In this document: in pieces, positions 26,167 to 53,703 of the stretch
Layout of the letters: each line of letters starts with the position of its first letter
How positions within the stretch are numbered: the first letter of the stretch is position 1
Assembly (NCBI GenBank): GCA_001782165.1
Contig: MFNV01000009.1
Location: 122,283 to 186,282, forward strand
Source of the DNA: Candidatus Levybacteria bacterium RIFCSPHIGHO2_01_FULL_41_15
GTDB taxonomy: Bacteria; Patescibacteriota; Microgenomatia; Levybacterales; UBA12049
Reading direction: 5' to 3'
Length of the DNA: 64,000 bases
Program-made: the position numbers and the translations under genes
The notes under the pieces: generated by a model
Database searches by the model: none
What the model was told of the DNA's origin: nothing
The model's input: only the letters and a program-made list of their open reading frames with translations

Positions 26167-26181
26167 AATTTTATTAAATTG

Positions 26182-28866: not shown

Positions 28867-29266
28867 GGGGATGCATTGCATCGACAGGAAAGCACATTAA
28901 AAACTGCAAGCCGACTTTGATGACAGTCGTCCCGCTGATAGTTTTCAGTCGGGATCCCGCCATCGGCGGTGATAAAACAGGGTCAAAAAATAAATGCTAA
29001 CGATCAAAAGTTAGCGTACGCATTTGCTTATAATTAAGTAATTTCGTACTGTTCATTAAATCTTTTCTCAACGAGATTTTATGGGCATAAATAAAGTTGA
29101 GATATAAATAAAAAGTTGGTTGGCTTTTTATCCGAAAATTTCAACCTTTGCTTTGTTTGTTTCCTTCCGATTTGGAGAAAATAAAGCGAGACTTAAAAAT
29201 CGGATAAGCTTGTAGATGTTTTTGGTTCGGCTTTCTTGGACTCGAGCTCACAGCTCGACATCTCCA
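28867..29266 (+). ncRNA. ssrA: tmRNA (transfer-messenger RNA)
   Basis: 5' GGGGAUG...AUCGACAGG tRNA-like start. 3' T-stem-loop TCGAG-CTCACAG-CTCGA, then CATCTCC-A, giving a G3-U70 wobble and A73 discriminator (tRNA-Ala identity). The internal AAAAAAUAAAU-GCU AAC GAU... block parallels E. coli AAAAAAUAGUC-GCA AAC GAC. Predicted tag reading frame 28996-29037 encodes (A)NDQKLAYAFAYN*. The element sits in a 490-bp ORF-free gap 1.0 kb from smpB. Confidence 0.65.
28931..28978 (+). repeat. 48-nt double-hairpin element, copy A (inside the tmRNA pseudoknot-1 region)
   Basis: gtcccgctgatagttttcagtcgggatcccgccatcggcggtgat has two stem-loops. A second copy lies at 53656-53703 with compensatory changes. 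Confidence 0.5.
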
Positions 29267-29341
29267 CACTACGCCCACGATTTCATAGGGGCTCCGCGTG
29301 GTAAACCACACTTTAATCTTTTGTTCCCATTCTTTTAATGC

Positions 29342-29626
29342 ATGCGAAGTGTGTGCCGCGAAACTTCAGTGAAGTGGTACAATTTATCTGTGTATTACGT
29401 TTACATTCTAAGACTCAACGACAGATCATATTATCATGGTTACTCTACGGATCTTAAAAAAAGACTAAAGTACCACAGACAAGGGTTAATTCCATCAACA
29501 AAGAACTTCCGTCCAGTAAAACTAATTTTTTATTCTGCTTTTGAATCAAAAACTAAAGCTCTTGAGTTTGAAAAATACTTAAAATCCAGCTCGGGTTTTG
29601 CTTTTCGAAACAAACATCTAATTTAA
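29342..29626 (+). CDS. GIY-YIG nuclease-domain protein (YhbQ/UPF0213-like)
   Basis: 94 aa; YYVYILRLNDRSYYHGYSTDLKKRLKYHRQG...TKNFRPVKLIFYSAFESKTKALEFEKYLKSSSG. Confidence 0.7.
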   Translation: MRSVCRETSVKWYNLSVYYVYILRLNDRSYYHGYSTDLKKRLKYHRQGLIPSTKNFRPVKLIFYSAFESKTKALEFEKYLKSSSGFAFRNKHLI

Positions 29627-29696
29627 ATATTTCATCATATCCACAAATTAACCTATAATAATTGCTTTTAACTTCTATTTTTGATACAATTCCGCA

Positions 29697-30251
29697 ATGG
29701 TAACAACTGAGCTCCAAAGAAAGTTGCATGCGAACGACTATCCTCATGCTGAAGAATTGAGGGGAAGATTGGTCCCAGTTTATCACATAACTGACAAGGA
29801 CGCCTTACCTTCCATAATGCAAACTGGATTATCTGCCTCTAGAGACAAGAGCAGAAGCGCAAAAATGTATAAGGAAGAGAGAAGAATAGTCGATGGGATA
29901 ATTGATAGGTTCGTTTTTAAACTTTGGCCGGGATTCTCAAGAACCGATGCTATTTACGCTGATCTTGAACCAGCAATCCGCATTGTGCCTTTTAGATGGC
30001 AAACAACAAATTTAGAAGTGATGGTTGACCCCAGTAAAGTTTTGGTTGTTGATCAATGGTATTATGATGAGACAAGAGGAGCTCTTCAACGGCATAAATT
30101 AAGGGAAGTAGTTTGGAATGCAAGGCAATACTGGAAGACAGCAGTAACGCTTCAAGAATATAGAGCTCGGGGTGGGGGATTATTTGCTATACCAGAAGTT
30201 ATTATACCCAACCCGGTTGGCATAGGAAGACTAAGAGTATTAAATGATTGA
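29697..30251 (+). CDS. hypothetical protein with ADP-ribosyltransferase-fold-like N-terminus (DarT/DUF4433-like or Tpt1-like), orphan
   Basis: 184 aa. VPVYHITDKDALPSIMQTGLSAS ... ERR ... IDRFVFKLWPGFSR resembles the YHITH..NL.SIL..G.L / ...VPFYFCP blocks of DarT-type ARTs. No DarG/macrodomain partner is nearby. This is a memory-based motif match only. Confidence 0.3.
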   Translation: MVTTELQRKLHANDYPHAEELRGRLVPVYHITDKDALPSIMQTGLSASRDKSRSAKMYKEERRIVDGIIDRFVFKLWPGFSRTDAIYADLEPAIRIVPFRWQTTNLEVMVDPSKVLVVDQWYYDETRGALQRHKLREVVWNARQYWKTAVTLQEYRARGGGLFAIPEVIIPNPVGIGRLRVLND

Positions 30252-30257
30252 AGAAGA

Positions 30258-30689
30258 TTAGGCTAACTCCCGCTCGACATCGCGCTCTATATCCTTCTTC
30301 TTCTTTGCTTCTTTTTTCTCAAATTCTTTCTTTCCTTTTCCCAAACCAAGCGCTACTTTTATAAAATTTTTGGTTGTGTAAATCGAAAGAGGGATAATGG
30401 ATAGATTGGAACCTTCAGTTCTGCCTTTTAGAGCTATTATCTCTTTTTTGTGAAGAAGTAGTTTTCTTGTTCTTCTTTCATCATACCCCTCCGGTCTTGC
30501 GTATTGATAGGGGAAAATTTTCGCATTTATTAAATACGCCTCGCTTCCAATTATTTTAACAAAACTTCCTTTTAAATCTGCCATCCCAAGTCTTACAGCT
30601 TTTACTTCTGCGCCTATCAGATTTATACCGGCCTCAACTTTTTCAAGAACTTGATAATCAAAAAATGCTTTTTTATTTACTATTTTCAT
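30258..30689 (-). CDS. smpB: SsrA-binding protein SmpB
   Basis: 143 aa; KKAFFDYQVLEKVEAGINLIGAEVKAVRLG... and a basic C-terminal tail. Confidence 0.9.
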   Translation of the reverse strand: MKIVNKKAFFDYQVLEKVEAGINLIGAEVKAVRLGMADLKGSFVKIIGSEAYLINAKIFPYQYARPEGYDERRTRKLLLHKKEIIALKGRTEGSNLSIIPLSIYTTKNFIKVALGLGKGKKEFEKKEAKKKKDIERDVERELA

Positions 30690-30763
30690 CCTTCGGCGAG
30701 CTCAGGACAAGTTACTTCGCTTTGCTCAGTTCAATAATAGAGGATAAGAAAGTAAAAGTAAAT

Positions 30764-32500
30764 TTACTTTAAATCTATTTGGTAGATTTTATTGCCAGAT
30801 AATATATAGATTTTTTTGCCAGCTTCTTTTACTTCAAAATCTTTTGCATTTTTTAAGAGATTTGTTTGATATTGCGACTTGTAGCCGCCGTTTTTATCAG
30901 ACACTACAATCCGCAAGTTTCCGTTATCAAGTATATAAACATTATCAGAATCAGCATCTGTAAAAATTCTTGAAGGATTTGAGAGGGGCTTATCGAGTCC
31001 TGAAATATTCAGGTTGTCTGATTTGCCCTTCGTGTATTTACTTATTGATCCATCAGAAGAAAGAATCCAAATCGAGCCGTCAATTGCAATACTTTGAGCT
31101 TTCGAAAGATTAGGAGATGAATCTTTTGGGAAATAATTAGTTTTGGAATATTCCTCCTCAGATTCAACGAACTTATAAATTTGACCACTATCTTTATCAA
31201 GAATATAGAAATTCCCAAAATATACACCAAAGCCCCCAATATTTTTGGGAAGCTCTGAGATTTTTATTAATATTTCCTGGTTTTCTCCATTAAGATCTTC
31301 CGAAACTACCCCATCTTTTTTAAGAAAATAAATTTTCTCGTCACTCTTTACAAAGTAAGAAGAGCTGGGGTTTTTAAGCTCTGAGGAGAGCAGGGGACTT
31401 GAGGATTCATTTACTTCTTTGGCCTCTGCTGATTCTATTCCCGATGCTTGCAAAAGTGCCTTAGAGGTTTTATCAAAAAGAGAAAGAATTTGTTTTTCCT
31501 CTTTTGAGTCTTTTGGAAATTTTGATTTATTTTCATTTAAAGTATTGTAAGCCTCCTTGAAGCTGTCTCTTGCAAGATTTTTGTTAAGAGATAAAAGACT
31601 TTGTCCTTCATCATATTTCTTAGAAGCGTTTGGATAGACGCTTTCAAAAAGAGCTCGTACTTTGGCATCGTTTCTGCTTTTAATAGAAAGATAAATTGTT
31701 GATATTAAAACTAGGGCAACAACAATTGTTATAGTCAAAAATAACCTTCTTGTATGGGGAATTTTCCTGAAGCTTGATATATTAATCCTGCTTCTGATAG
31801 ACGCCAGAAAGTTTTTAAGATTAATTGAAAATCTCTTTTGGGAAGATAAAGAGGTGCCATCCGTTATTTTTTCCAAGATCAAGGGCTCCTCTTCAGCAAA
31901 TTTAAGCTCAAAAATTATTGCAGAAGCACCTCCTTGTCCTTCCTCCCCATGGATAATAGGAGCAATAGTTTCAGCAATATCGGAGGCAGATTGGTGGTCC
32001 AAAGATGAAATAAGAATTTTTGAGGAAACAAGATCCTTAAATCCTCGTGTCTGAAGTATCAATAAATCTTCGTTTTTTATCATTCCCGATATCGCAGAAA
32101 TTTTGCCTTCCTCGTCTTCTTCAAGAAGTGTTCCCAATTCATCTGCTCTTTTGATATTTACTCGGCAGGGACCTTGGGAAAAAATATAAATTACATTTTT
32201 GACAATGGAGGCAACTACAAATGAGATAGATAGATCCTCTGGGATTTTCTTAGTTGTCGCTTCGAAGGCAGTTTTTATAGAAGGGAGATCCTTTGTTTCA
32301 AGAGTAAAAAATTCCTGTTCAAGACCCTCAATTATTTCTTTACCCTGCGTACTTAAATAATCCTCTCTTTTTTCTTCGGGAGATTTTTTTTCAAGAGACA
32401 AAACTGCAAATAGTTTGCCTGCATTGTAGGCCTGCGACCAGGAGGACGCGGTTGGGTTGGCAACGACCTTTGCAACAGAGATACTTATCTCATCGGCCAT
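30764..32500 (-). CDS. bitopic membrane protein: cytoplasmic N-terminal domain, one TM, extracellular repeat-rich domain; unknown function
   Basis: 578 aa with TM at LFLTITIVVALVLISTIYL. The ectodomain has repeated YIL/WIL beta-strand-like units (possibly a propeller). The N-domain vaguely resembles a degenerate PP2C-like fold. Confidence 0.35.
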   Translation of the reverse strand: MADEISISVAKVVANPTASSWSQAYNAGKLFAVLSLEKKSPEEKREDYLSTQGKEIIEGLEQEFFTLETKDLPSIKTAFEATTKKIPEDLSISFVVASIVKNVIYIFSQGPCRVNIKRADELGTLLEEDEEGKISAISGMIKNEDLLILQTRGFKDLVSSKILISSLDHQSASDIAETIAPIIHGEEGQGGASAIIFELKFAEEEPLILEKITDGTSLSSQKRFSINLKNFLASIRSRINISSFRKIPHTRRLFLTITIVVALVLISTIYLSIKSRNDAKVRALFESVYPNASKKYDEGQSLLSLNKNLARDSFKEAYNTLNENKSKFPKDSKEEKQILSLFDKTSKALLQASGIESAEAKEVNESSSPLLSSELKNPSSSYFVKSDEKIYFLKKDGVVSEDLNGENQEILIKISELPKNIGGFGVYFGNFYILDKDSGQIYKFVESEEEYSKTNYFPKDSSPNLSKAQSIAIDGSIWILSSDGSISKYTKGKSDNLNISGLDKPLSNPSRIFTDADSDNVYILDNGNLRIVVSDKNGGYKSQYQTNLLKNAKDFEVKEAGKKIYILSGNKIYQIDLK

Positions 32501-32503
32501 AAT

Positions 32504-32728
32504 TTATAGTATAACAACTGCTGCAATAAAAAGCGAAATCGCCAAAAGAAGATTGATAACTGTAACGCCTGTCAATACTTGCGAGGAGGGAGGAATGTGA
32601 ATTATTTTATTCATTGTTATTGTTTGAATTAATATAACAACCGTAAAGATAATATAACCGAAAATAAGAATAAGACCTGAAATCTTTATGAAAAAGGCAA
32701 GATTTGGAAGTTGAACAATGTTATCCAC
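32504..32728 (-). CDS. small two-TM membrane protein
   Basis: 74 aa with two hydrophobic helices. Confidence 0.3.
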   Translation of the reverse strand: MDNIVQLPNLAFFIKISGLILIFGYIIFTVVILIQTITMNKIIHIPPSSQVLTGVTVINLLLAISLFIAAVVIL

Positions 32729-33356
32729 TTGTGCCCCCTTTTCCTATACTCTCGCCAATGATTCTTGCGGCTTCTGCGGGATTAGGCACGGCCAATGCCT
32801 CAAGATTCTCTTTTCCTCCTGCCGTTTGAACGAAGAGATCGCCGTAGTTTAAAAGCGATCTTATGAAACCTACTTTGGTATAATTTACGTCCTCGATTAA
32901 ATTCAAATTTGTCATTGCTACATCGTGATAAACAATGTTTGAATAATCAATGTCAACAACCCCCCTATCAGTAATAAGAGTTATATTATAAAACCAGTCC
33001 ATAAAACTGATTAATATATAGGAGAGAATAATAAGATAATAAAAAAGGGCTGAAAAAAATAGAAGTCCATTGGGCAAAAATGGGAAAAGATTGGCAAAAT
33101 CGTTTGAGACAGATATAAAGATAGGAAAGGCAATAATGAGAACTGCAGATATTAATAACCAACTTAAATTGGTTATGAAATGCCGTCTTAAGAGAAGAAT
33201 TATCTTTTCATCCTGTTTCTGATGCTGAAAAGTTATTTTTTCTGGGTCCCTTGTGAATCTCAAATGTAGCCGATTAATCTTCCTTATTCCATCGGACTTT
33301 TTATCTATATGTGTCTGCGTTTTGACTTTGCTATTTGCAATAAAAATGTCAGGCAT
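32721..33356 (-). CDS. membrane-flanked bacterial PH-domain protein (YdbS/YdbT-like, bPH_2)
   Basis: 211 aa with two TMs then ITDRGVVDIDYSNIVYHD...DLFVQTAGG...EALAVPNPAEAARIIGE. Confidence 0.5.
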   Translation of the reverse strand: MPDIFIANSKVKTQTHIDKKSDGIRKINRLHLRFTRDPEKITFQHQKQDEKIILLLRRHFITNLSWLLISAVLIIAFPIFISVSNDFANLFPFLPNGLLFFSALFYYLIILSYILISFMDWFYNITLITDRGVVDIDYSNIVYHDVAMTNLNLIEDVNYTKVGFIRSLLNYGDLFVQTAGGKENLEALAVPNPAEAARIIGESIGKGGTSG

Positions 33357-33408
33357 GATAATAAATTAAAAATTAAAAGTGAAAATTTAAAAATTTACGA
33401 AACTTAGA

Positions 33409-35136: not shown

Positions 35137-35182
35137 GCAATTGTTATTATATCAAATTGAACCTTGCTAAATTGAAACTTAT

Positions 35183-35788: not shown

Positions 35789-35833
35789 TTGACCCCGATT
35801 GACCCTCTAGCCCCTTTCCTGTAGTATATTTTT

Positions 35834-36781: not shown

Positions 36782-36782
36782 T

Positions 36783-38983: not shown

Positions 38984-38986
38984 TAA

Positions 38987-41197
38987 TTAAGGCGTCTTTT
39001 GTGGTGATGGGGATGGTCTTTTGAAAGCACAGTTTACAAAATTTTCCGTCCCTTTTATGAAATATTCATTACGACTAAGACACTGTTTCTGGACAATATC
39101 AGATGGGATAGAATACTTTTCATCCTTCTTGGAAGACAAAAGATTTTCCATTATCCTATGCCAAATCGGAGCGGCACCTGTAATTCCCGATGCTAAACTC
39201 TGATTCATCGGACTATTGTCGTTGTTTCCCACCCAGACAGCCACCAGATAGGAAGGAGTGTATCCGATTGTCCAATTGTCTCTCTTATTATCAGAGGTTC
39301 CTGTCTTTACTGAAACCGTTCGACCCTTAATGACAAGAGGAGAATTTGTGCCAAATTCCATTTCTCTTGCCTTATTGTCCGATAAAATATCTGAAATCAT
39401 AAATGTTACTCCCTCGTCCAATACTTTTATTTTTTCATTCCCTTTTTTCTCAAGAGCGTGACCCTTGGAGTCGGTTACCTCCAAGATAGGATTTAGATCA
39501 ACTCTATACCCCTGATTTGCAAGTACCCCATAAACAGTTGCCATATCAATCATTCGGACTTCTGCTCCGCCGAGTGTTATTGAGAGTCCATAGTCTTTTG
39601 GATCTTTCCATGTAGTTATTCCCATTTTCTTTCCCAGCTCAAGCATAGCCGGGATTCCTATTGCATTTAAGATTTTAACAGCAGGAATATTTACAGAATT
39701 CGAAAGAGCCTGTCTTATTGTCAAAGGTCCATGGAATCTCCCGTCATAATTAACCGGTGAGTAGGAGGGGCCACCATTTTGGGTAAAAGTTATAGGAGCG
39801 TCTTCTACAATTGTTGCTGCTGTAAAGCCTTTTTGAAGAGCGGCTGAATAAGTGACTGCTTTAATACTTGATCCAGGCTGTCTTAAAGCAAGCGTTACAT
39901 TATAGTTTCCGCCTTCTAGGTCCGAGTAGTCCTTGCTTCCTACCATTGCCAAGACATCTCCCGTCAAGGGTGCAGTTACCAGAGACGCACCGTTTGTGAG
40001 GGCAAGATATAAAGATTTTTCAATCTCCTCCTTTGTAATTTTTTCTGCCATTCCCTGTATTTTTAAGTCAAGAGATGTCCTGACCATGAGGCCACCTTTT
40101 TCTACAATGGGCAGTCCGTACTTCTTAATTAGAAGATCTTTAATATACATCACGAAGTGGGGAGCACGAATAGGATCTAAAGTTCTTTGAAAATTAAATT
40201 CAATTTTATTTGCTTCATCTGCTTGCTTCTTACTTATGAATTTCTGCTCAACCATTTTTTTGAGTACCTCTTCTCTTCTTTTTTTCCAAAGATTCGGATT
40301 GTTTCCATAAGGAGAGTAAACAGTTGGAGCATTGGGAAGGCCGGCTAAAAAGGCTGACTCGGACAAATTAAGATCTTTTGCACGCTTTCCAAAATATGTT
40401 TGCGAAGCCGCTTCAACTCCCCAGGCGGTCCCTCCATAAGGAATCTGATTAAGATACATCTCAAAAATTTCTTCCTTTTTGTAAATTTTTTCAGCCCAGA
40501 AAGCCAATATTATCTCCTTTATTTTTCTGGTAATACTTTTTTCAGGATTAAGAAGTTTTGATTTAATAAGCTGTTGTGTGATGGTTGATCCTCCCTGAAG
40601 AGGTTTTCCCGAAAGGTTTGAGAGTAAGGACCGTGCAATTGCTTCTATATTAAATCCGGGATTTGAATAAAAATCATTATCCTCGATTGCAATCGTTGCC
40701 TCCCTAAGATATTTGGGCGTATCTGATAGCGGAATTTGGGTTCTGTTTTCTGTTGCATAAATCTGGTACAAAAGATTTCCGTTCCTGTCATAAATTTTAG
40801 TTGTTAGTGCATTATCTGACAAAGCGAGAATTTTTGGATTGGGAAGGTCCTGGATAAAAATGAAAGAAAGAAGAGGGATGAATATAAAGATAGACGAGAA
40901 TAAGAATCCAACAAGGAAAAATTTCATTTTTACAGACAATGGAACAGGGAAAATTGAGATTTTCTTGGTCTTTGTTTTTGGGTAAAATCTTAATGTTCTT
41001 ATAAAGAATGAAAATCGATTGCCAAAAACTCTAAGAGAGTCTTTAACGGAAGACAGAAGAGCAGAAGATCCTGAAGGAACCCATTCCGAAGTTTTTCTTA
41101 TAAATTTTATAATTTTTTCAAAAAGGAATAGAGTTATATCTCCTATCCTGATAAGAATTTTTACAATCAGAATGACGATGCTTGATAAGACTTTCAT
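38987..41197 (-). CDS. class A penicillin-binding protein (glycosyltransferase GT51 + transpeptidase), paralog 1
   Basis: 736 aa with GT51 motifs EDNDFYSNPGFN, GGSTITQQLIK and transpeptidase SxxK/SxN/KTG blocks. The likely true start is the Met at 40927 (MKFFLVGFLF). Confidence 0.85.
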   Translation of the reverse strand: MKVLSSIVILIVKILIRIGDITLFLFEKIIKFIRKTSEWVPSGSSALLSSVKDSLRVFGNRFSFFIRTLRFYPKTKTKKISIFPVPLSVKMKFFLVGFLFSSIFIFIPLLSFIFIQDLPNPKILALSDNALTTKIYDRNGNLLYQIYATENRTQIPLSDTPKYLREATIAIEDNDFYSNPGFNIEAIARSLLSNLSGKPLQGGSTITQQLIKSKLLNPEKSITRKIKEIILAFWAEKIYKKEEIFEMYLNQIPYGGTAWGVEAASQTYFGKRAKDLNLSESAFLAGLPNAPTVYSPYGNNPNLWKKRREEVLKKMVEQKFISKKQADEANKIEFNFQRTLDPIRAPHFVMYIKDLLIKKYGLPIVEKGGLMVRTSLDLKIQGMAEKITKEEIEKSLYLALTNGASLVTAPLTGDVLAMVGSKDYSDLEGGNYNVTLALRQPGSSIKAVTYSAALQKGFTAATIVEDAPITFTQNGGPSYSPVNYDGRFHGPLTIRQALSNSVNIPAVKILNAIGIPAMLELGKKMGITTWKDPKDYGLSITLGGAEVRMIDMATVYGVLANQGYRVDLNPILEVTDSKGHALEKKGNEKIKVLDEGVTFMISDILSDNKAREMEFGTNSPLVIKGRTVSVKTGTSDNKRDNWTIGYTPSYLVAVWVGNNDNSPMNQSLASGITGAAPIWHRIMENLLSSKKDEKYSIPSDIVQKQCLSRNEYFIKGTENFVNCAFKRPSPSPQKTP

Positions 41198-41261: not shown

Positions 41262-43433
41262 TTAAGGACTGGGGGACGGAGAAGGAGATGGATGTGCGCA
41301 ACTCAGGCAATAAGCGTCTCCGGTTGGGTCTTTAATAATAGTTTGTTTTTTAACTTCTGTATTGGCGTCTCCCTCCTTTGCCATCTCCTGAGTATCTTTA
41401 TTTACCCATACATCTTGATTGGTGATACTTATGCCTCCCTTAAACTCCGTTCCAAGGATGAAATACTCAAACCGGGTCTTACAAGAGTTTCCCTTCCCTG
41501 GAATAGAGCCGGTATCTTCACATACTGCTTTTTGTATTATTCCTCCCGGTCTTTGGAATGGTTCAGGAGGTTTTCCCTTAAGAAGATTTTCCATTATATC
41601 ATGCCAGATTGGCGCTGCTCCAGTTATTCCTGATACAAGGCCGCCCATGGGGCTCCCGTCATTATTTCCAACCCATATGGCAACAACATAGGAAGGAGTA
41701 AAACCTATTGTCCAGTTGTCTTTGAAATCATTTGTGGTTCCAGTTTTTACAGCAACGGGAAGGTTACCGATCCTAAGAGGTGAATTTGCACCAAATGCCA
41801 TTTCTCTTGCCCTATTGTCGGAGAGAATGTCGGATATTATAAATGCTACCCCTTCAGGAATTACCTTTTTGCCAAAGATTGGCGAAGAAGGAGGTTTATA
41901 TTCCTCAAGAACTTTCCCTTTCCCATCAACGACCTTAAGAATTGGATGCAAAGGAATTTTGTATCCTCCGTTTGCAAAAACTCCAAAAGCCTGTGCCATA
42001 TCAACCATGGTAACTTCTCCCCCCCCCAACGTTAGAGAAAGACCATATCTGTCAGGACTTTCAAATGTACTAATTCCCATAGCAGATGCTGTTTCTATCA
42101 TTGTCTCAAGTCCGTTGAGCTTAAGCATTTTAACGGCAGGTATATTTATAGAATTTGCAAGAGCAAATCTCATTTGCATTACACCATGAAATCTTCCGTC
42201 ATAATTAACAGGACAATAAGGACGCTGTCCCGGATTAGGGAAACATATCCTCTGATCAATAAAAGGAGTTGCGGCAGTGTACCCCTTTATAAGTCCTGTT
42301 GCGTAATTTATTGGTTTAATACTTGATCCAGGCTGTCTTTCCGCCAAAGTTACATTAACATTTCCGTCATTTTCGGTATCAAAATAATCTCGGCTTCCAA
42401 CCATTGCGAGTATTTCTCCTGTTCCTGGTCTTGTAACCAAACCTGCCCCGTTATTCGCATTTGCATATTTTATTCTTTTCACTTCCGCAGAAATAGTTGC
42501 TTGTGCCATTGCCTGAATCTTTAGGTCAAGACTTGTTGTAACCTTAAGCCCTCCCTCCTCAACAGTCTTTTCCCCATACTTTTTGACCAGAAGATCCTTG
42601 ACATAGAGAACAAAGTGAGGAGCTTTTATAGTATTTGACAGATTTTTATATTTCAGAGGTTCTCTTAAAGCTTTATCAAACTCCCTTTTGCTGATATGTT
42701 TCTGCTCATACGTCCTTCTTAAAACTTCCTCCTGTCTTTTTTTGGCAAGTTCAGGATGGGCTCCAAAAGGAGAATAAGTGGTCGGAGCCTCAGGGAGCGC
42801 AGCAAGAAGAGAACTCTCTGAGAGAGTAAGATCTTTTGCACGCTTTCCAAAATATGTTTGCGAAGCCGCTTCAACTCCCCAGGCGGTCCCTCCATATGGG
42901 GTTTGGTTAAGATACATTTCAAGTATTTTGTTCTTAGGATAAAGAGCTTCTGTTGCAAAAGAAAGAAGAACTTCCTTGACTTTCCTTTTGATAGTTCTTT
43001 CCTGAGTAAGAAGGCTGTTTTTCACAAGCTGCTGAGTGATGGTTGATCCTCCTTGGAGCCTGCCATAAAAAATTATAGAAATTGCCGATCTGACAATCCC
43101 TTTTATATCAATAGGCCCATGCTCATAGAAATCCTTATCCTCTATTGCTATTGTGGCTTCTTGCATGTGTTTGGGAATAGAAGAAAGAGGCACAAAGGTT
43201 TGGTTTTTCTTTCCGTAAATTGTAAAGAGAAGCTCCCCGTTCCTGTCATAAATTTGGGACGAGTAAGATGCGCTGTTTACCGAAAGGCGGGTTGGAGAAG
43301 GGAGGTCTTTTAATATAGATATGTAAAACATAACGAACCCCAAAAAGATAAAAATAATCGGGAGGGCATATCTTTTTTTAATAAGTTTCTTAACAAAATC
43401 TTTAACTTTCTTGGTATACTTATCTTCTGGCAT
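41262..43433 (-). CDS. class A penicillin-binding protein, paralog 2
   Basis: 723 aa; EDKDFYEHGPID, GGSTITQQLVK, transpeptidase motifs, and a C-terminal PSPSPSP tail. Confidence 0.85.
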   Translation of the reverse strand: MPEDKYTKKVKDFVKKLIKKRYALPIIFIFLGFVMFYISILKDLPSPTRLSVNSASYSSQIYDRNGELLFTIYGKKNQTFVPLSSIPKHMQEATIAIEDKDFYEHGPIDIKGIVRSAISIIFYGRLQGGSTITQQLVKNSLLTQERTIKRKVKEVLLSFATEALYPKNKILEMYLNQTPYGGTAWGVEAASQTYFGKRAKDLTLSESSLLAALPEAPTTYSPFGAHPELAKKRQEEVLRRTYEQKHISKREFDKALREPLKYKNLSNTIKAPHFVLYVKDLLVKKYGEKTVEEGGLKVTTSLDLKIQAMAQATISAEVKRIKYANANNGAGLVTRPGTGEILAMVGSRDYFDTENDGNVNVTLAERQPGSSIKPINYATGLIKGYTAATPFIDQRICFPNPGQRPYCPVNYDGRFHGVMQMRFALANSINIPAVKMLKLNGLETMIETASAMGISTFESPDRYGLSLTLGGGEVTMVDMAQAFGVFANGGYKIPLHPILKVVDGKGKVLEEYKPPSSPIFGKKVIPEGVAFIISDILSDNRAREMAFGANSPLRIGNLPVAVKTGTTNDFKDNWTIGFTPSYVVAIWVGNNDGSPMGGLVSGITGAAPIWHDIMENLLKGKPPEPFQRPGGIIQKAVCEDTGSIPGKGNSCKTRFEYFILGTEFKGGISITNQDVWVNKDTQEMAKEGDANTEVKKQTIIKDPTGDAYCLSCAHPSPSPSPSP

Positions 43434-43481
43434 AGCCTATATGATACCATTTAAAATAATACCAATACAATTGTTCTCTGT

Positions 43482-44516: not shown

Positions 44517-44596
44517 AGAAGTTAGTTCGAAGTTTGGTTATTGGTTATTCGTAAAAAAACGAAGAGCGAACTAGCAAACTAACTAATAACTGTCAA

Positions 44597-46248: not shown

Positions 46249-46293
46249 AATCCGAGTATTATAGGATAAAAAAAAGAGGAAATCAAGATATGA

Positions 46294-47979
46294 TTACCAG
46301 CTTGTCCTAAGGTGGTTCATGGCGTAGTTTAGGTCGCCGGAGACTTTTTTGCGGGGGTTGAAGATATTTTGGGGGTCGAAGATTTTTTTTGTTTCCTCAA
46401 AAAGCTTTACAATTTCTTCTCCATACATTTGCTTAAGATACGGAGTTCGTATCAATCCATCATTGTGCTCTCCGGTTGTTGACCCCTTATACTTTGCGAC
46501 AATTTTATAAACCTGGTTTGAAATCTGGGGAATTGCTTCTCGGACATTTGGATTATTAATATCAACCAGAGGAATGATATGAAAGTTTCCATCTCCCACA
46601 TGCCCTGCGACAGTGAAGATGAATTCCGGATGTTTTTTCAGGATATCAGTCACTTGGGGTACTACTTCTGTAATATATTCAGGTTTAATAACAAAGTCAT
46701 CTATAAAAGGTGCTGTGTGTTTATCTCGAATTTTCTTGCGAAGCAGATTGAAACTCTCGCGCCGGACAAGCCAATATCTTTTCTCCTGTCCTTCCAAAGC
46801 TGTCTGGGTTGTGGGATGAAGCGGTTTGAGTTTTTCCCGAAGTGTCGCCACTTTTCCCTTAACCTCCGAAAGATCGTCGCTTGTAAAATCAACTTGAAGA
46901 ACCAGTTTGGGAAGACTTCTTCCGGTAAACAAATCAAAAAAAGCTGGCAAAAATGCAATGCCTGCTTCAATTGATCCTAGAAAACCTAATTGTTTTGTAA
47001 ATTCCGGAAAATATTTAAGCGCGAGTTTTAATGTATTGTCATCATACGATTCAAAACTTTCCGGCTCAAGATCAAGAACCTCTTTTATAATCTGTCCAAG
47101 GGCAGACATGTCATGAAGAAAAATTATTAACATATCACGATGCTTATGAATGGGTACAAGTCCCAAGTCTCCTTCTAAAAACATTCCCAGAGTTCCTTGC
47201 GCTCCGACAAAAAGTCTAGTAAGATCAAATATTTTTTTGTCTTTGTCCCATACATTCCAAAGATAGTAGCCTGCGGAGTTTTTTGAAACCTGTGGCTTTG
47301 CTTTCAATAACAGTTCGTAGTTATTAGTTATTAGTTCATAGATTTTTTTATAGATTTCTCCTTCGTAATCTTTTTGTTTTAATTTTTGCTCGAGTTCCTT
47401 TTCATTTAGCGGCCTAAACTCGTATTCGTTTCCATCAGATAGAACAACTTTTAATCTTCTTACATAATTTTCGGTCTTTCCATACTTAAGGGATTTTTCT
47501 CCTCCCGCATTGTTGTTGAAGATTCCTCCCATTGCGCATAATTCCCTAGATGCAGGATATGAGGGGAAAATTAGATTATATTTAAGAGTCTCCTTTTCAA
47601 AATCCCTGTAAAAAACTCCCGGTTGAGTTGTCGCTATATTTCCGTTTACGGCCGGGGTTTTATTAAAGTATTTGCCAAAAGCAACGATAATAGATTCATT
47701 AATTGATCCGCCTCCCATGTCTGTCCCTGCGGCGCGTGCGGTAAGGGAAAGAGTGGGATTATTTTTTTTATTATCATTAACAAACTTAACCAGAGCTTTC
47801 ACATCTTCGTCATCTTTTGGGAAAACTACAGCTTGAGGCTTTACTTCAAAAAGCGAAGCATCGTGGGAGTAGTCGGAGAGGGTTTGATTATCGGTTATAA
47901 CGTCACCTTTAATCAATGTCTTAAGTTTATCGAGTAATTCTTGATCCATAAATTCCAAATCCAAAATCTCAAATAACAA
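46294..47979 (-). CDS. FAD-linked oxidase (GlcD / D-lactate dehydrogenase-like)
   Basis: 561 aa with FAD_binding_4 (ARAAGTDMGGGS) and a C-terminal HVGDGNFHI block. Confidence 0.75.
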   Translation of the reverse strand: MLFEILDLEFMDQELLDKLKTLIKGDVITDNQTLSDYSHDASLFEVKPQAVVFPKDDEDVKALVKFVNDNKKNNPTLSLTARAAGTDMGGGSINESIIVAFGKYFNKTPAVNGNIATTQPGVFYRDFEKETLKYNLIFPSYPASRELCAMGGIFNNNAGGEKSLKYGKTENYVRRLKVVLSDGNEYEFRPLNEKELEQKLKQKDYEGEIYKKIYELITNNYELLLKAKPQVSKNSAGYYLWNVWDKDKKIFDLTRLFVGAQGTLGMFLEGDLGLVPIHKHRDMLIIFLHDMSALGQIIKEVLDLEPESFESYDDNTLKLALKYFPEFTKQLGFLGSIEAGIAFLPAFFDLFTGRSLPKLVLQVDFTSDDLSEVKGKVATLREKLKPLHPTTQTALEGQEKRYWLVRRESFNLLRKKIRDKHTAPFIDDFVIKPEYITEVVPQVTDILKKHPEFIFTVAGHVGDGNFHIIPLVDINNPNVREAIPQISNQVYKIVAKYKGSTTGEHNDGLIRTPYLKQMYGEEIVKLFEETKKIFDPQNIFNPRKKVSGDLNYAMNHLRTSW

Positions 47980-48078
47980 ATAAATTCAAAGCTACAATTT
48001 CCAAAATCGAAAACGATCTTGAATTTTGAGATTAGAATTTAGATATTATTTAGGATTTGGTGCTTTGAATTTGTAATT

Positions 48079-49068: not shown

Positions 49069-49160
49069 AACAATTCAAAATTCATAATTTAGAGTTCAGA
49101 ATTTAAATTTAAAGTTTAGGATTCTCTTAATTCTTAATTCTGCATTCTAGATTCTAAATT

Positions 49161-50024
49161 CTATTGGTGTTCGCTTCTTATTTTTCCCTGTAAAGTCCTA
49201 AGTTCGTCGAGGGCTTTTTTTGCCTCCTCTTTGTTCGGCGGTTTTCCGTGCCAGTGAAAGTCTTTTTCCATAAAATCAACACCTTTTCCCGGAATTGTGT
49301 GGGCAATAATAACTGTTGGTTTTTCAAAGACAGCCCGAGCTTCTTTTACGGAATCTATAAAAGCTCTGATATTATTTCCATCAACTTCTAGGACTTTCCA
49401 ATTAAATGTTTCATACTTTTGCCTTAAAGGTTCAAGAGGCATTACATCTTCTGTGAAGCCATCGATCTGGATGTTATTTCTGTCTATTACAACTGTTAAA
49501 TTATTTAACCTATGTTTTCCTGCAAACATTGCCGCCTCCCAAGCGTTTCCTTCCTGATGTTCGCCGTCTGATGTTATGCAATAAATATGATACTTTTTAT
49601 TATCAAGACTTGCGGCAAGTGCCATACCGATTGACTGAGAAATACCTTCTCCCAAAGGACCTGATGTCGTCTCGACTCCGGGAAGTGAGGTTCTATGAGG
49701 ATGTCCCTGAAGACGGGAATTTATTTTTCTTAAGGTTTTTAATTCCTCCAATGGAAAATAACCAGCAAGTGCCATGGTGACATAGCGAACCGGACAAATA
49801 TGTCCGTTTGAGAGAATTAGTCTGTCACGATCTTCCCAGTCGGGATTTTTCGGATCGTGATTTAGAATATGAAAATAAAAGGCTGTGAAGATATCCGCCA
49901 TTCCTAAAGGGCCTGCAGAATGTCCGGAGCCTGCTTCCAAGAGAGTTTCTATTATAAGCTCCCGGGTCCGGACTGCTTTTAATTCAAGTTCTTTAAGTTT
50001 TTTTTCGTGAAGTTCGGGAATCAT
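49161..50024 (-). CDS. transketolase, N-terminal subunit (TPP-binding)
   Basis: 287 aa; GHSAGPLGMADI... and GDGE..EG motifs. Confidence 0.85.
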   Translation of the reverse strand: MIPELHEKKLKELELKAVRTRELIIETLLEAGSGHSAGPLGMADIFTAFYFHILNHDPKNPDWEDRDRLILSNGHICPVRYVTMALAGYFPLEELKTLRKINSRLQGHPHRTSLPGVETTSGPLGEGISQSIGMALAASLDNKKYHIYCITSDGEHQEGNAWEAAMFAGKHRLNNLTVVIDRNNIQIDGFTEDVMPLEPLRQKYETFNWKVLEVDGNNIRAFIDSVKEARAVFEKPTVIIAHTIPGKGVDFMEKDFHWHGKPPNKEEAKKALDELRTLQGKIRSEHQ

Positions 50025-50281
50025 CCTAATTCTATATTACAGTTTATTTATTAGGCTTTGCAAACAGTTTCATCTTCTTTTCTGCCGAGAAAGCCTATTC
50101 TGTACTTTTGTACCGGCAAAAGTACCAAAAACTCTCGACAAGCCTCCTCTCGTGCTTTCAGATTAAAACTCACTTAACGTGGGAACCCTCCCGTTAGGGA
50201 ATCCCACAGTTGCGCTCATTTAATCCTTCATGCACTCGACGCCAGATTGTCAATTAATAACTGTGGAATGGCAAAATAAAA

Positions 50282-51556
50282 CTAGTCTTTTAAAACAATC
50301 ATGAGGTCCGAGACGTTTGAGGGAAGGCGGCCGGTTTCAATTCCGTCTCCTGTTTTTTGGAAAAATTCTAAACTATTGTTATTGTCCAAAAATTCTTGCG
50401 GATTTAAGTTTAATTTTTTTGCTTTTTCTAAGGTCTCAATGTCTCCGATAGCTCCGGCAAAAGGAGAGTTATCCCAACCATCTGAGTCAAAAGAGCAAAT
50501 TACAGTTTTGTCATCTATATTTGAAAGTGCGCCGAGAACTACTTCCTGATTTCTACCGCCTTTTCCAGAACCTGTTACCTTTACAGTTGTCTCGCCCCCA
50601 ATAAGAAGAATAGAGCTTGGAGTAGTTTTACTTACAAGGTCCGACCCTGTATTTCTTGCTTCACCCTGGAATTTATCGCTTAGAATTTCTGCTTTAAAAC
50701 CTAGCTCTTCCGCTTTTTTCTTCATTGCCTCAAGAGCTGTTAAATTGCTTAAAATTAAAATATTTGAAATTTTTTCAAAATATTTATCCTCCTTAGGAGT
50801 TTCTGTTAAATAGTCCTTGGTAACAAGGTCCGACCTTGTTAAGCTTGTTGAGATTGAAAGAGCGTCATCAATAGTTGTCGGGTCTTTAACAGTTGGTCCT
50901 GAAGATATGACAGAAAGATCATTGCCGGGGACATCAGATGCGATTATACTTACAATGGTTGCGGGGTAAAGATGCTTAGCAAGTCCTCCTCCTTTTACAC
51001 TTGATAAATGTTTTCTTACTGTATTCATTTCTTTGATATTTGCACCTGATTTAAGAAGGGCATCATTAATTTGTATTAGTTTTTCAAGATCAACACGGTA
51101 TGGTTTTTCAAATAGGGCAGAACCTCCTCCTGTTATTACTACTATTACCAAGTCTTTTCTTGTAGGATTAATTTCAGTAAATCTCTTTATCAAACTGTCG
51201 GTAAAATCAACATTAGTTTGTGAGGGGAGGGGATGGGTGCCTTGGGTAAATTTTATTTTTTTAAAATCTTCAGAGTTTGTGTCTATAACATAACTCTCAA
51301 CCAGTCTGTTCCCTAACTTTTCCTTAATTAGTCTTGAGTTTTTCGCCGACCCTTTCCCAAAACCTATTAAAAATATTCTCTCAAAGCCTCCTAAGTCAAA
51401 TGACTTATCACTAATTCCTAAAATATTGTTTTCTAATTTAATACTATTATTAATAACATTTTCCGGCTGAATTGATGAAAGAGCAGTTTCTACAAGCTCC
51501 AAGACAATCTTCCTCTGTGGTCTTGTCGCAATCTTCTCAAAATTCCTAATAAACAT
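50282..51556 (-). CDS. glycerate kinase (MOFRL family)
   Basis: 424 aa with MOFRL family domain architecture (DUF4147-like N, MOFRL C). Confidence 0.65.
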   Translation of the reverse strand: MFIRNFEKIATRPQRKIVLELVETALSSIQPENVINNSIKLENNILGISDKSFDLGGFERIFLIGFGKGSAKNSRLIKEKLGNRLVESYVIDTNSEDFKKIKFTQGTHPLPSQTNVDFTDSLIKRFTEINPTRKDLVIVVITGGGSALFEKPYRVDLEKLIQINDALLKSGANIKEMNTVRKHLSSVKGGGLAKHLYPATIVSIIASDVPGNDLSVISSGPTVKDPTTIDDALSISTSLTRSDLVTKDYLTETPKEDKYFEKISNILILSNLTALEAMKKKAEELGFKAEILSDKFQGEARNTGSDLVSKTTPSSILLIGGETTVKVTGSGKGGRNQEVVLGALSNIDDKTVICSFDSDGWDNSPFAGAIGDIETLEKAKKLNLNPQEFLDNNNSLEFFQKTGDGIETGRLPSNVSDLMIVLKD

Positions 51557-51728
51557 TTGATTTTAGTTTATATTTATCCCAAGCTATTGACAACAGCTTA
51601 TAGTTATGAAAATTCTTGTCATTATACCAATGTTATAACGTTGTTATAACATAATATTCTTGACAGGAATTTATAATGGGCATACTATATTTATATAATA
51701 GTTTTTATATAGTCTTGGCAGACATCCT

Positions 51729-52436
51729 ATGAGCGTTGAAGGCGCCCGGGTTCTTCATTTCTTTGATAGATACAGGAGGTTTAGCCCCCAAGTCCCCCCT
51801 CCCGCAAAAGCAGAAATAGTTTCCATCTCTGATATAAGAATCAAAAGAGAGGAAAGAGTTTTAAAAGAACAGATAGCAAGATTTGTAGAGGAGTTTGGCT
51901 TTCATAGAGAGTTGGATATGTCAGAGGAGGATTACTGCGCCTCTTTCCCAAAACCAGCCCAAAAGCCAGAGGAATATAGTGCTAGATTTGATATTACTCT
52001 TCCTATTGACCCTAGAATTCCGCTACAAACCTTGCATAGACTTGCGGGAATTTATGACTATTATTTTGAAGCACTAAATGTTGTAGACCTAAAACACCCT
52101 CCTACTAGAAAACCTTATATTATTTATCTTAGAAGCGAGACTCATGCCCTCAATTCAATAGAAGAGGGAATGGCAAGTCTTAAAGAAGATGAGGGAGATC
52201 CCACGTGGCGTGAAGTTGTCCTTTTCTATCTATTGCATTATAGAGAGCATCCTGAACCTCATTCTATTGTCCGATCGTTTAGGGCAGCAAGTTCGCGTCT
52301 TATAATTGAGGACGGAGAATTAGTACCCGTTCTTGAAATGTACCACGATAAGCCAATAGCCCGAGGCAGGACTATTGATTCTTTCTATCCACATAGGGCT
52401 TTAATTCGTGGAAATATAATAAATGTTGCTGCTTAA
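51729..52436 (+). CDS. hypothetical protein
   Basis: 235 aa with no recognised motif. Its GC content appears higher than surrounding genes. Confidence 0.35.
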   Translation: MSVEGARVLHFFDRYRRFSPQVPPPAKAEIVSISDIRIKREERVLKEQIARFVEEFGFHRELDMSEEDYCASFPKPAQKPEEYSARFDITLPIDPRIPLQTLHRLAGIYDYYFEALNVVDLKHPPTRKPYIIYLRSETHALNSIEEGMASLKEDEGDPTWREVVLFYLLHYREHPEPHSIVRSFRAASSRLIIEDGELVPVLEMYHDKPIARGRTIDSFYPHRALIRGNIINVAA

Positions 52437-52489
52437 GTTTCTTCTTTCTGCCTCTTGATGTAATTTTTCCTGTCTCCTATACTAATTGT

Positions 52490-53569
52490 ATGATTCGCGT
52501 TGCTATAAATGGATATGGAAGAATAGGGAGAGTAGCTCATAGAGTAATTCTTGAGAAATATCTTTCGGAGATCGATGTTGTTGCGATAAATGCAGGCTCT
52601 TCAACTGATATAAAAGGGTGGATGTACCTGCTAAAGTACGATTCTTCATATGGACCATTAAGTTCAGAGTTCAGAGTTCAGAGTTCAGAGTTGAATGATT
52701 CAGAAAAAACAGGAATACTAAAAGATTGCATCGGTTATTTAATTATTAATGATAAAGAAATTCCGGTTTTTTCCCAGAAGGATCCAAGTCTTTTGCCATG
52801 GAAAGACTTAAATGTTGATGTAGTTATTGAATCAACAGGAGCTTTTACAAAAGAGGAAAAACTTAAGCATCATCTTGATGCAGGTGCAAAATCAGTAGTT
52901 TTATCAGCTCCTGCCAAAGATGGTGACGTTCCCACATATGTAATTTCAGTAAATTCCAAAGATTACAAAGGCGAAAAACTTATAAATAACGCTTCTTGCA
53001 CAACTAATTGCATAACACCGGTTGCAAAAGTAATTGTTGATAATTTTGGCGTCGAGAAGGCTATGATGACGACAATCCACGGATATACATCTGATCAGAG
53101 ACTTCAGGATGGCGGACATAAAGATTATAGACGCGCCCGAGCGGCAGCAGAAAATATAGTGCCAACATCAACCGGTGCCACAATTGCCGCTTCGCAAGCT
53201 CTGCCAGAACTTCAAGGATTATTCAGCGGACTTGCAATAAGAGTTCCTGTTGCGGTTGGGTCTTTATCGGATTTCACTTTTCTTTTAAAAAGGGAGACTT
53301 CAAAAGAAGAAGTAAATGAGATTTTTAGAAAGGCATCAACGGATCCCATATATAAAGGTATACTAGAGGTGACAGAAGATCCTATTGTATCATCTGATAT
53401 TATTGGGAATCCCCATTCCGCAATTGTAGATTTATCTCTGACGCAGGTAGTAGGAGGAAACATGCTTAAGGTAATTGCCTGGTACGACAATGAATACGGA
53501 TATTGCAATCGACTCGTTGAAGAAGTACTACTCGTTGGAAAATCACAAATACAAAGCACCAAATCCTAA
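52490..53569 (+). CDS. gap: glyceraldehyde-3-phosphate dehydrogenase, type I
   Basis: 359 aa with NGYGRIGR and ASCTTNC active site. A 7-nt (agttcag) x4 tandem repeat at 52661-52688 encodes the atypical insert SEFRVQSSEL. Confidence 0.9.
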   Translation: MIRVAINGYGRIGRVAHRVILEKYLSEIDVVAINAGSSTDIKGWMYLLKYDSSYGPLSSEFRVQSSELNDSEKTGILKDCIGYLIINDKEIPVFSQKDPSLLPWKDLNVDVVIESTGAFTKEEKLKHHLDAGAKSVVLSAPAKDGDVPTYVISVNSKDYKGEKLINNASCTTNCITPVAKVIVDNFGVEKAMMTTIHGYTSDQRLQDGGHKDYRRARAAAENIVPTSTGATIAASQALPELQGLFSGLAIRVPVAVGSLSDFTFLLKRETSKEEVNEIFRKASTDPIYKGILEVTEDPIVSSDIIGNPHSAIVDLSLTQVVGGNMLKVIAWYDNEYGYCNRLVEEVLLVGKSQIQSTKS

Positions 53570-53655
53570 ATAATAATTTAATTAAGTCCAAATGTCCAAA
53601 ATCCAAAACAGTTTTGGTATTAGAATTTTTTATTTTGTATTTATTTGTGATTTGT

Positions 53656-53703
53656 CCCGCTGGTAGTTTCCAGCCGGGATCCCGCAATTGCGGTGAGAAT
53701 TTT
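53656..53703 (+). repeat. 48-nt double-hairpin element, copy B
   Basis: gtcccgctggtagtttccagccgggatcccgcaattgcggtgag. Same two stem-loops as copy A with compensatory substitutions (ctga/tcag to ctgg/ccag; ccgcc/ggcgg to ccgca/tgcgg). It lies 87 nt after the gap stop; copy A lies 83 nt after the comF stop. Confidence 0.5.

Follow-up and report, generated by a model that had tools for sequence, protein, structure and literature searches.

The findings of this analysis suggested that two similar double hairpins in the window, by which we mean the whole 64,000-nt stretch of Candidatus Levybacteria DNA that was analysed, are very small, GC-rich mobile palindromic elements that arrived as recent, species-specific insertions, a reading to which we assign a probability of roughly 0.82. 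The first-pass annotation had listed a small mobile repeat among its explanations, and this was supported by the absence of the copies at orthologous sites of close relatives and by the occurrence of family copies at unrelated loci, some of them nested and some in protein genes.

Two copies of a double hairpin in the window

28929..28975, plus strand: copy A of the element (sequence, fold, covariance model R1 at 68.5 bits)
28930-28972, plus strand: copy A core, TCCCGC...GCGGTGA
28930-28954: copy A hairpin 1, UCCCG-CUGA / UCAG-U-CGGGA, loop UAGUUU
28955-28972: copy A hairpin 2, UCCCGC(C) / (G)GCGG-U-GA
53654..53699, plus strand: copy B of the element (sequence, fold, covariance model R1 at 70.6 bits)
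53655-53696: copy B core, with hairpin 1 at 53655-53679 and hairpin 2 at 53680-53696

A 48-nt double hairpin had been described twice on the plus strand, at 28931-28978 and 53656-53703. Both copies were real, but their length was 46-47 nt and the coordinates were off by 2 nt, the true positions being 28929-28975 and 53654-53699. The copies differed by five substitutions and a 1-nt indel in hairpin 2 (CCGCC-AUC-GGCGG in A, CCGC-AAUU-GCGG in B), and because of this indel the gap-free consensus first proposed was wrong, its full pattern fitting copy B only. A sub-pattern search of the window matched exactly copies A and B, with a chance expectation of 0.00-0.02. The covariance model R1, built from 23 family members and run with filters off, gave a next-best match in the 64-kb window of 10.5 bits, compared with 68.5 and 70.6 bits for the two copies. 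Each copy folded into two adjoining hairpins of 25 and 17-18 nt, with a one-base bulge in each, at -23.6 (A) and -22.1 (B) kcal/mol and a z-score of about -3, and the likeness between A and B ended exactly at the hairpin core. No Rfam family matched the element in the scan that the first-pass annotation had proposed: at copy B, nothing meaningful was returned at E <= 10 (top match 24.8 bits, below the cut-off of 55), and other family copies were without any match at the gathering threshold.

Insertion of copy A into the tmRNA gene

28153..28848, plus strand: comF-like phosphoribosyltransferase gene (ORF; Pfam Pribosyltran/DZR_2 on the identical protein), upstream neighbour of the tmRNA
28867..29269, plus strand: tmRNA gene (ssrA), host of copy A (Rfam RF00023, 113.4 bits, E = 1.6e-43, full-length model match)
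28912..28986, plus strand: PK1 of the tmRNA, stems predicted
28912-28916 (CGACU) with 28925-28929 (AGUCG): PK1 stem 1
28917-28921 (UUGAU) with 28982-28986 (GUCAA): PK1 stem 2
28930-28981: PK1 loop 3, which carries the element (about 7-8 nt in relatives)
28996..29037, plus strand: predicted tag reading frame, from the GCU resume codon (taken from the Rfam alignment) to UAA, peptide ANDQKLAYAFAYN
30258..30689, minus strand: smpB, protein partner of tmRNA (ORF; PF01668, name of the identical protein P0001)

The window tmRNA could be aligned over its full length with those of relatives, which were fetched by means of smpB. The tmRNAs of L028, L030, L032 and L034 (SmpB 83-91% identical to that of the window) and of L108 (97%) lacked exactly the element, and relative to these five Levybacteria tmRNAs copy A was a clean insertion of 43-44 nt. 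The empty site of L108 read CAGTCG-C-AAAACA, whereas the window read CAGTCG-[TCCCGC...GCGGTGA]-T-AAAACA, and comparison of filled and empty tmRNA sites revealed no target-site duplication. Four independent assemblies of this species carried copy A. The possibility that copy A is native PK1 architecture was ruled out, as it is missing from five related tmRNAs that otherwise align end to end. The earlier statement that copy A coincides with PK1 was correct as to location, but what lies there is an element inserted in loop 3 and not PK1 itself.

The length of PK1 was 62 nt in the window against 18 nt in the Rfam model. Its pairing was compatible in all five aligned tmRNAs, with 98% of cells paired compared with 14-54% when the partner was slid; no covarying pair was found in the PK1 stems among these five, and the stems are therefore given as predicted. 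The tag frame was intact 3' of the insert, and L108, the closest relative, had a near-identical tag region. Each copy had also been noted to lie about 85 nt downstream of comF or gap. The distances, 81 and 85 nt respectively, were confirmed but are coincidental; for copy A the 81 nt include a spacer of 18 nt together with the 5' portion of the tmRNA gene.

By parsimony, these comparisons point to insertion in the window species rather than loss, although precise loss in the relatives is possible in principle. Copy A entered between the 3' strands of PK1 stem 1 and stem 2. Its two hairpins, each folding by itself, extended loop 3 from about 8 to 52 nt and left PK1, the tag frame and the remaining tmRNA intact. 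The mature tmRNA probably retains the insert as a passive passenger, because loop 3 appears to tolerate it, and nothing suggests that copy A is removed from the tmRNA RNA.

Copy B in the gap-cmk spacer

52490..53569, plus strand: gap, glyceraldehyde-3-phosphate dehydrogenase (ORF; Pfam Gp_dh_N/Gp_dh_C), upstream neighbour of copy B
53759..54334, plus strand: cytidylate-kinase-like gene (ORF; weak Pfam Cytidylate_kin2/AAA_18 matches), downstream neighbour of copy B

Copy B lay in the AT-rich spacer between gap and the cmk-like gene, into which it was inserted. The gap-cmk gene order was kept in relatives, and the orthologous spacers of three of them (L105, L106, L107) were without copy B; a covariance-model search of these three loci gave no match anywhere.

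A family of dispersed copies

The motif search beyond the window that had been proposed from the sequence yielded 53 further distinct copies, hence the element is not a two-copy repeat. Public scans placed the 55 distinct copies, window pair included, in Patescibacteria/Microgenomates contigs. Eight homologous copies came from public genome contigs, none within a tmRNA, and the metagenome scan contributed 69 loci; one 721-kb contig held at least seven copies. Spacer copies occurred in both orientations and included rRNA spacers, with one copy 157 nt after a 16S rRNA (L047) and another in a 23S-5S spacer (L069). In L043, L074 and L075 copies were nested, having been inserted at TAG^TTT of another copy's loop, right after the (G/A)TAG that is conserved in the loop of hairpin 1.

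Across the family, the element measured 43-55 nt and was built of two adjoining hairpins with the same clamp, UCCCG...CGGGA, joined at the palindrome CGGGA/UCCCG. Hairpin 1 was nearly invariant (GUCCCGCUG-R-UAGUUU-Y-CAG-N-CGGGA), and hairpin 2 was an exchangeable module, of the short type CCCGC-N4/5-GCGG-U-GA in the window copies. The termini formed imperfect inverted repeats of 6-7 nt (TCCCGC / TCACCGC; in type 2, GTCCCG / CGGGAC). The compensatory A-T to G-C change reported for stem 1 was genuine, with 32 A-T, 18 G-C, one G-T and four mismatched pairs among the 55 distinct copies, and this switch shows some constraint on pairing. The corresponding c-g to a-t change claimed for stem 2 was invalid, as the copy B pair would close a 2-nt loop. 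Selection on structure, as first argued, was thus supported at one covarying pair and not beyond it. The other 14 of the 15 stem pairs and the hairpin 1 loop were invariant, partly owing to the way copies were collected, and sequence conservation therefore exceeded covariation.

Long open reading frames contained 13 of the 55 distinct copies, and for nine of these the protein carried Pfam domains. Among the 10 proteins scanned against Pfam, domains flanked or spanned the insert in eight (GuaA, ProRS, RecR, a GT4 and a GT2 glycosyltransferase and three DUF2298 proteins); in DnaX, domains lay upstream of the insert only, and the L077 protein gave no match. Empty sites were found in homologues of the L077 protein (L094/L091) and, reciprocally, between the DUF2298 proteins of L046 and L050/L071. 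In 12 of the 13 reading frames the element was antisense, with a predicted peptide of ITAxAGSRLETTSGK, SPQMRDPDWKLPAGQ or HRxGGIPTxNYQRD. All three frames of the antisense strand were open, and for this reason copies in protein genes would survive where that strand is read.

Functional RNA or passenger

A functional RNA motif under structural selection, such as a 3' stabiliser, terminator or processing site downstream of comF/tmRNA and gap, would account for the stable folds (z about -3), the stem pair that alternates between A-T and G-C and the many copies in transcribed spacers, among them rRNA spacers. We nevertheless consider it improbable. No U-tract was present and the terminator scan made no call at 53654-53699, where the tail reads GAGAAUUUUAG. 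The stabiliser/terminator family envisaged in the first-pass annotation was likewise not supported by the intergenic copies, which were co- and anti-oriented about equally relative to neighbouring genes (++ 7, -- 6, -+ 4, +- 4), or by the copies within reading frames, 12 of which were antisense to the coding sequence. Orthologous sites were empty in close relatives with the same gene order, no Rfam family was matched, and the stem pairs and loop of hairpin 1 were for the most part invariant instead of covarying.

It is similarly unlikely that an element of mobile origin has since been co-opted, forming an added, protein-binding or stabilising arm of PK1 in which the loop G/A-UAGUUU is a putative host-factor site. 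The near-invariance of hairpin 1 and its loop across genomes could indeed also reflect the binding of a factor or a function at the RNA level; the insert was fixed in the four assemblies of the species, and PK1 stem 2 had changed around it yet was still able to pair. However, a relative with a 97% identical SmpB does without the insert, and the same sequence was tolerated in either orientation and in unrelated proteins, so a passenger fits better than a function.

That a PK1 fragment of the tmRNA was duplicated or converted to give copy B in the gap spacer, or that the copying ran the other way, as a local event without a family, would suit a window with just two copies, one of them in tmRNA, but is hardly credible, given that the A/B similarity ends at the hairpin core, that the segment is missing from related tmRNAs, that 53 other distinct copies exist, and that hairpin 1 of each copy is identical to copies on other contigs (A to L017, L050, L076, L077 and L085; B to L024) while A and B differ there.

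Proposed mode of transposition

Under the mobile-element reading, the most likely route, and the weakest step of the proposed mechanism, is that a structure-specific enzyme would use the hairpins as single-stranded DNA substrates. The absence of a target duplication would be in keeping with an HUH/Y1 transposase of the IS200/IS605 or RAYT kind, a tentative candidate that we regard as rather doubtful. No transposase, other mobilising gene, autonomous parent element or IS was found in the family loci examined. A transposition burst was not evident, as copies were few (2 in 64 kb).

Comparison with known small repeats

Rickettsia palindromic elements (RPE; Ogata et al. 2000, 2002) are fused into protein genes, tmRNA and RNase P RNA genes of Rickettsia, according to Delihas 2007 (PMC2229807, citing Ogata 2002); they have no known transposase and are usually seen as tolerated selfish DNA (PMC2229807; PMC1779305). 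The Levybacteria element behaves like RPE, its copies occurring in tmRNA, in reading frames, nested in one another and, in both orientations, in spacers. Both are small palindromic repeats of reduced genomes found in spacers, at in-frame sites of conserved protein genes and in a structural RNA gene, here the tmRNA; RNase P RNA was not among the loci. The two are set apart by size, fold and host. RPE are 100-150 bp long, form one long stem-loop of Rickettsia-specific sequence with terminal inverted repeats of about 12 bp and reside in Alphaproteobacteria, whereas the Levybacteria element, of 43-55 nt in two tandem hairpins, is about a third of that size, resides in Patescibacteria and has an apparently lower copy number.

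Similarity to REP/BIME elements, which are associated with RAYT (Y1 HUH) transposases (see also PMC3184786), lay in the short imperfect palindromes, which are GC-rich, bulged and of comparable size, the single, tandem or mosaic occurrence, the lack of target-site duplication and the conserved (G/A)TAG. REPs, however, are extragenic by definition and number hundreds of copies, while the Levybacteria element enters coding sequences (13 of 55 copies) and RNA genes at two per 64 kb or at least seven per 721 kb, and the GTAG or GTGG head of REPs precedes the stem instead of sitting in the hairpin 1 loop. Bacterial MITEs (Correia/NEMIS, ERIC, RUP, YPAL) are likewise small non-autonomous repeats with stable RNA folds, some of which form in-frame fusions with reading frames (PMC2229807), and the Levybacteria termini form a short imperfect inverted repeat. 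MITEs differ in their length of 100-400 bp and in carrying terminal inverted repeats with a target-site duplication, often TA, which was absent at the Levybacteria tmRNA site (CAGTCG-element-TAAAACA against CAGTCG-C-AAAACA).

Other interruptions of tmRNA genes, in which a conserved gene likewise carries foreign or rearranged sequence, include a group I intron, two-piece permuted tmRNAs and islands integrated at the 3' end. The 43-nt insert is far too small for an intron, and it lies in PK1 loop 3 instead of at the 3' attachment site used by islands.

Significance

Palindromic selfish DNA within essential protein genes and tmRNA has been best known so far from Rickettsia. Our finding of a second, much smaller and unrelated family in small-genome CPR bacteria suggests that the phenomenon recurs in small genomes; in the limited literature searched, no comparable element was described from CPR bacteria. 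The finding also raises the question of the enzyme by which a 43-nt hairpin pair is moved with no target duplication. A more speculative extension, which we think probably goes too far, is that an actively mobile 43-nt double hairpin, among the smallest mobile units, is colonising the ultra-small genomes of CPR bacteria, at essential protein genes as well as essential RNA genes (tmRNA, rRNA operons, tRNA clusters), without target duplication or a recognisable transposase, and that the GCGGGATCCCGC centre and the TCCCGC-N-GCGGTGA hairpin, related modules of Omnitrophota and other phyla, belong to the same much wider, undescribed system.

The insertion sites reveal tolerant regions, namely PK1 loop 3 of tmRNA (about 45 extra bases) and sites in GuaA, ProRS and RecR (about 15-30 extra residues). 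The element is also an annotation hazard, as it inflates PK1, and conserved proteins gain odd predicted peptides, such as SPQMRDPDWKLPAGQ, from in-frame copies. For groundwater metagenomes, the presence/absence pattern of the element provides fine-scale strain markers.

Two copies of a GC-rich double hairpin in the window

A GC-rich element made of two hairpins occurred twice in the window, once in the tmRNA gene and once in the spacer between gap and a cytidylate-kinase-like gene (cmk).

Features of the window discussed first
28929-28975, plus strand: copy A, GTCCCGCTGATAGTTTTCAGTCGGGATCCCGCCATCGGCGGTGATAA (sequence reading)
53654-53699, plus strand: copy B, GTCCCGCTGGTAGTTTCCAGCCGGGATCCCGCAATTGCGGTGAGAA (sequence reading)
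28867-29269, plus strand: tmRNA, full-length (Rfam, 113 bits)
30258-30689: smpB, about 1 kb from the tmRNA

The first-pass annotation had reported two copies of a 48-nt double hairpin with compensatory changes; both copies exist, and the coordinates it gave lay 2 nt too far right. Its gap-free consensus concealed a 1-nt indel in hairpin 2, and because of this indel a search with the full consensus matched copy B only. Sub-patterns matched precisely the two window sites, with 0.00-0.02 matches expected by chance, and a family covariance model run over the whole window with filters off scored copy B at 70.6 and copy A at 68.5 bits, the next best match reaching at most 10.5 bits. Both copies folded as two adjoining hairpins on either strand (z of about -3 to -4). 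The A-U to G-C compensation in stem 1 was genuine; the one claimed for stem 2 was not real, because the pair in copy B would close a 2-nt loop. An Rfam scan returned the tmRNA at copy A and, run permissively, chance-level matches only at copy B. Hairpin 1 of either copy was identical to that of copies in other genomes but differed between the two, placing them in separate sub-lineages, with neither a duplicate of the other.

Copy A as an insertion in the tmRNA

The window tmRNA carried 62 nt in place of the 18-nt PK1 of the Rfam model. The tmRNA loci of relatives were obtained through SmpB homologues, four at 83-91% identity and one, the closest relative (L108), at 97%. All five tmRNAs aligned end to end with that of the window, save for a clean gap over the element, copy A being a 43-44-nt insertion relative to them; the tag-coding region was more divergent in the four more distant relatives than the rest of the tmRNA. 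The empty site in L108 read ...GACTTTGATTGGCAGTCG-C-AAAACACAATCAAAA and the filled site in the window ...GACTTTGATGACAGTCG-[TCCCGC...GCGGTGA]-T-AAAACAGGGTCAAAA, a comparison in which no target duplication flanked copy A. The insert was present in four independent assemblies of the same species, and the tmRNA outside it was intact, including the tag frame at 28996-29037 (ANDQKLAYAFAYN).

The flanks of copy A can form an H-type PK1, with CGACU/AGUCG as stem 1 and, as stem 2, UUGAU/AUCAA in the relatives and UUGAU/GUCAA in the window. Over five sequences, 98% of cells in these stems were paired, falling to 14-54% when the partner column was slid. As no pair in the stems covaried among the five aligned sequences, we treat them as predicted; on this model, the element would occupy PK1 loop 3.

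ARAGORN called no tmRNA in any of the six Levybacteria loci (window 28867-29269; L028, L030, L032, L034 and L108). Since the five insert-free relatives were missed too, this result was uninformative on the insert, and it looks like a lineage-wide blind spot unrelated to it. Rfam scored the tmRNAs of four relatives at 93-124 bits, and that of L108 was placed by alignment only. The tmRNA gene of L028 (6908-7270) was inverted relative to comF, compared with its orientation in the window and in three other relatives. L030 had an island of about 5 kb (6581-11536) separating smpB from the tmRNA and not found in the window; besides small ORFs, it carried genes for a serine recombinase (Resolvase/Recombinase domains) and an HTH regulator, and it probably represents an element that integrated beside ssrA.

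Copy B in the gap-cmk spacer

Copy B lay 85 nt 3' of gap and 59 nt 5' of cmk. This gene order was kept in three relatives (L105, L106 and L107), whose Gap proteins were 84-85% identical to that of the window. Their spacers of 4, 102 and 72 nt were all without the element, and the family covariance model found no match anywhere in the three gap-cmk loci; copy B is therefore lineage-specific as well. A scan for terminators and promoters made no call at copy B. Four further loci (L063, L065, L091 and L094) were considered as gap orthologues of this site and rejected, as tblastn showed that they were not gap loci; the 17 of 18 upstream bases that they had in common with copy B belong to the lineage's AT-rich spacer repeat.

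Such AT-rich, low-complexity repeats of the AAATTCAAAATT/AAATCCAAAAT type filled the window's spacers (for example 15793-15856, 19626-19689, 47949-48012 and 53540-53583), were also seen at two other loci with family copies (L046, L071), and often formed direct repeats on both flanks of the element. They also appeared in translated form within ORFs, for example as NSKFKI...NSKFKI and WNFEF stretches in DUF2298 proteins, sometimes without the GC hairpin. The repeat families D1, D8-D12 and D19 of the window corresponded to tandem paralogous gene copies (39140-40600 and 41583-43058) about 2.45 kb apart, with 72-80% nucleotide identity.

The element family

The motif search that the first-pass annotation had proposed did reveal a family beyond the window. 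Of the 20 stretches that a degenerate pattern picked out in a scan of one genome per species, eight were clear homologues; these came from Patescibacteria/Microgenomates MAGs, usually two to a genome, and all lay outside tmRNAs. The high-GC matches of this first pattern (Streptomyces, Gaiellaceae) were due to chance and were discarded. A looser pattern, with hairpin 1 alone fixed, yielded 69 metagenome loci, and distinct copies numbered 55, including those of the window, with at least seven on the 721-kb contig Ga0209514_10000016. No copy was found on IMG/VR viral contigs.

Hairpin 1 was nearly invariant across the family, loop included. Its innermost pair was A-T in 32 copies, G-C in 18, G-T in one and mismatched in four, and the remaining 14 stem pairs in elements of the window type were invariant, partly owing to the search patterns. 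Hairpin 2 was modular, occurring as the short window type, a longer CCCGCACGAATGAAATTCGTCGGGA type, an CCTCGATGG...CCATCGGGA type and others; the CCCGCACGAATGAAATTCGTCGGGA type had its own C-G/T-A and A-T/G-C switches. Every module was closed by UCCCG/CGGGA.

Insertion sites

Intergenic copies occurred in both orientations relative to neighbouring genes. At three loci (L043, L074 and L075) copies were nested, a whole element following the TAG of another copy's loop. Among RNA genes, one copy lay 157 nt past a 16S rRNA gene, one in a 23S-5S spacer and further copies in a tRNA cluster. Nested hairpin modules clustered beside tRNA-Glu(CUC) at L073 7170-7475 (also L088 and L097), where a second tRNA-Glu-like sequence, not called by ARAGORN, was apparently split by modules in the T-loop and near the 5' end. 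AdoCbl-II riboswitch aptamers were present in the window (61961-62041) and at L055 (4681-4761); at L055, an element copy on the opposite strand began just past the aptamer.

Thirteen copies lay within long open reading frames, 12 of them in antisense orientation, in which all three frames are open through the core and the usual AT-rich flanks. Peptides predicted from in-frame copies were ITAxAGSRLETTSGK, SPQMRDPDWKLPAGQ and HRxGGIPTxNYQRD. Pfam domains flanked or spanned the insert in eight of the ten ORF copies scanned.

Pfam results for copies within open reading frames
GuaA: insert within the amidotransferase domain
ProRS: insert between the core and the anticodon-binding domain
RecR: insert between Toprim and the C-terminal domain
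GT4 and GT2 glycosyltransferases: domains flank or span the insert
Three DUF2298 membrane proteins: domains flank or span the insert
DnaX: domains upstream of the insert only
L077 (a locus with a family copy): no Pfam match

In the DUF2298 proteins, inserts occupied two different positions, each empty in the other protein, and the L077 insert was missing from two homologues that were 66% identical.

A probable mobile palindromic element

Several observations together favour a mobile, largely selfish palindrome over a dedicated RNA signal: orthologous sites either hold the element or cleanly lack it, its insertion sites are unrelated, copies nest and lie in both orientations, and copies survive only where they leave the reading frame open. 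Its hairpins, its conserved (G/A)TAG and the absence of a duplication suggest that it could be moved by an enzyme of the HUH/Y1 type working on single-stranded DNA. In several Levybacteria, small GIY-YIG nuclease genes lay beside tmRNA or tRNA genes with or without the element (window 29342-29626; L032, L108 and L073). A link between this nuclease and the element was rejected, since these genes flank the tmRNA in relatives without the insert and were mostly kilobases from other copies.

The Rickettsia palindromic element (RPE) offers the nearest precedent. Delihas (2007, PMC2229807), citing Ogata et al. (2002), describes RPEs as fused into numerous protein genes and also into those for tmRNA and RNase P RNA. 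The Levybacteria family is not an RPE: the element is one third of the RPE's size, is a tandem double hairpin and has a host of another phylum. Nor does the element match REPs, defined as extragenic and high in copy number, or MITEs, defined by a target-site duplication, which was absent at the tmRNA site. A literature search of incomplete coverage found no account of such elements from CPR bacteria.

Lookalike hairpins and possible relatives in other phyla

The family model gave a hairpin at 26267-26285 (GTCCCGCCAGAGGCGGGAT) no more than 7.9 bits, and this hairpin was rejected as a family member; it resembles the anticodon arm in a fragment of a tRNA. The surrounding tRNA-like 5' half (26256-26315, minus strand), GTGCCCGTAGTTCAACGGATAGTAGCA followed by the hairpin TCCCG-CCTCTGG-CGGGA, abutted tRNA-Arg (26181-26255); its loop would give the anticodon UCU, the T-arm was absent, and neither ARAGORN nor Rfam called it.

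Palindromic elements of Omnitrophota and other phyla had a GCGGGATCCCGC centre and a TCCCGC-N-GCGGTGA hairpin in common with the Levybacteria family.

Palindromic elements of this kind
L025, L027: Omnitrophota MAG
L009, L014: uncultured bacterium
L022: Kerfeldbacteria

Those at L009, L014, L025 and L027 were enclosed by an outer ATTCCCG...CGGGAAT stem and occurred at least twice per genome. All of these elements may be distantly related to the Levybacteria family, and their sequence likeness hints at a family wider than Levybacteria.
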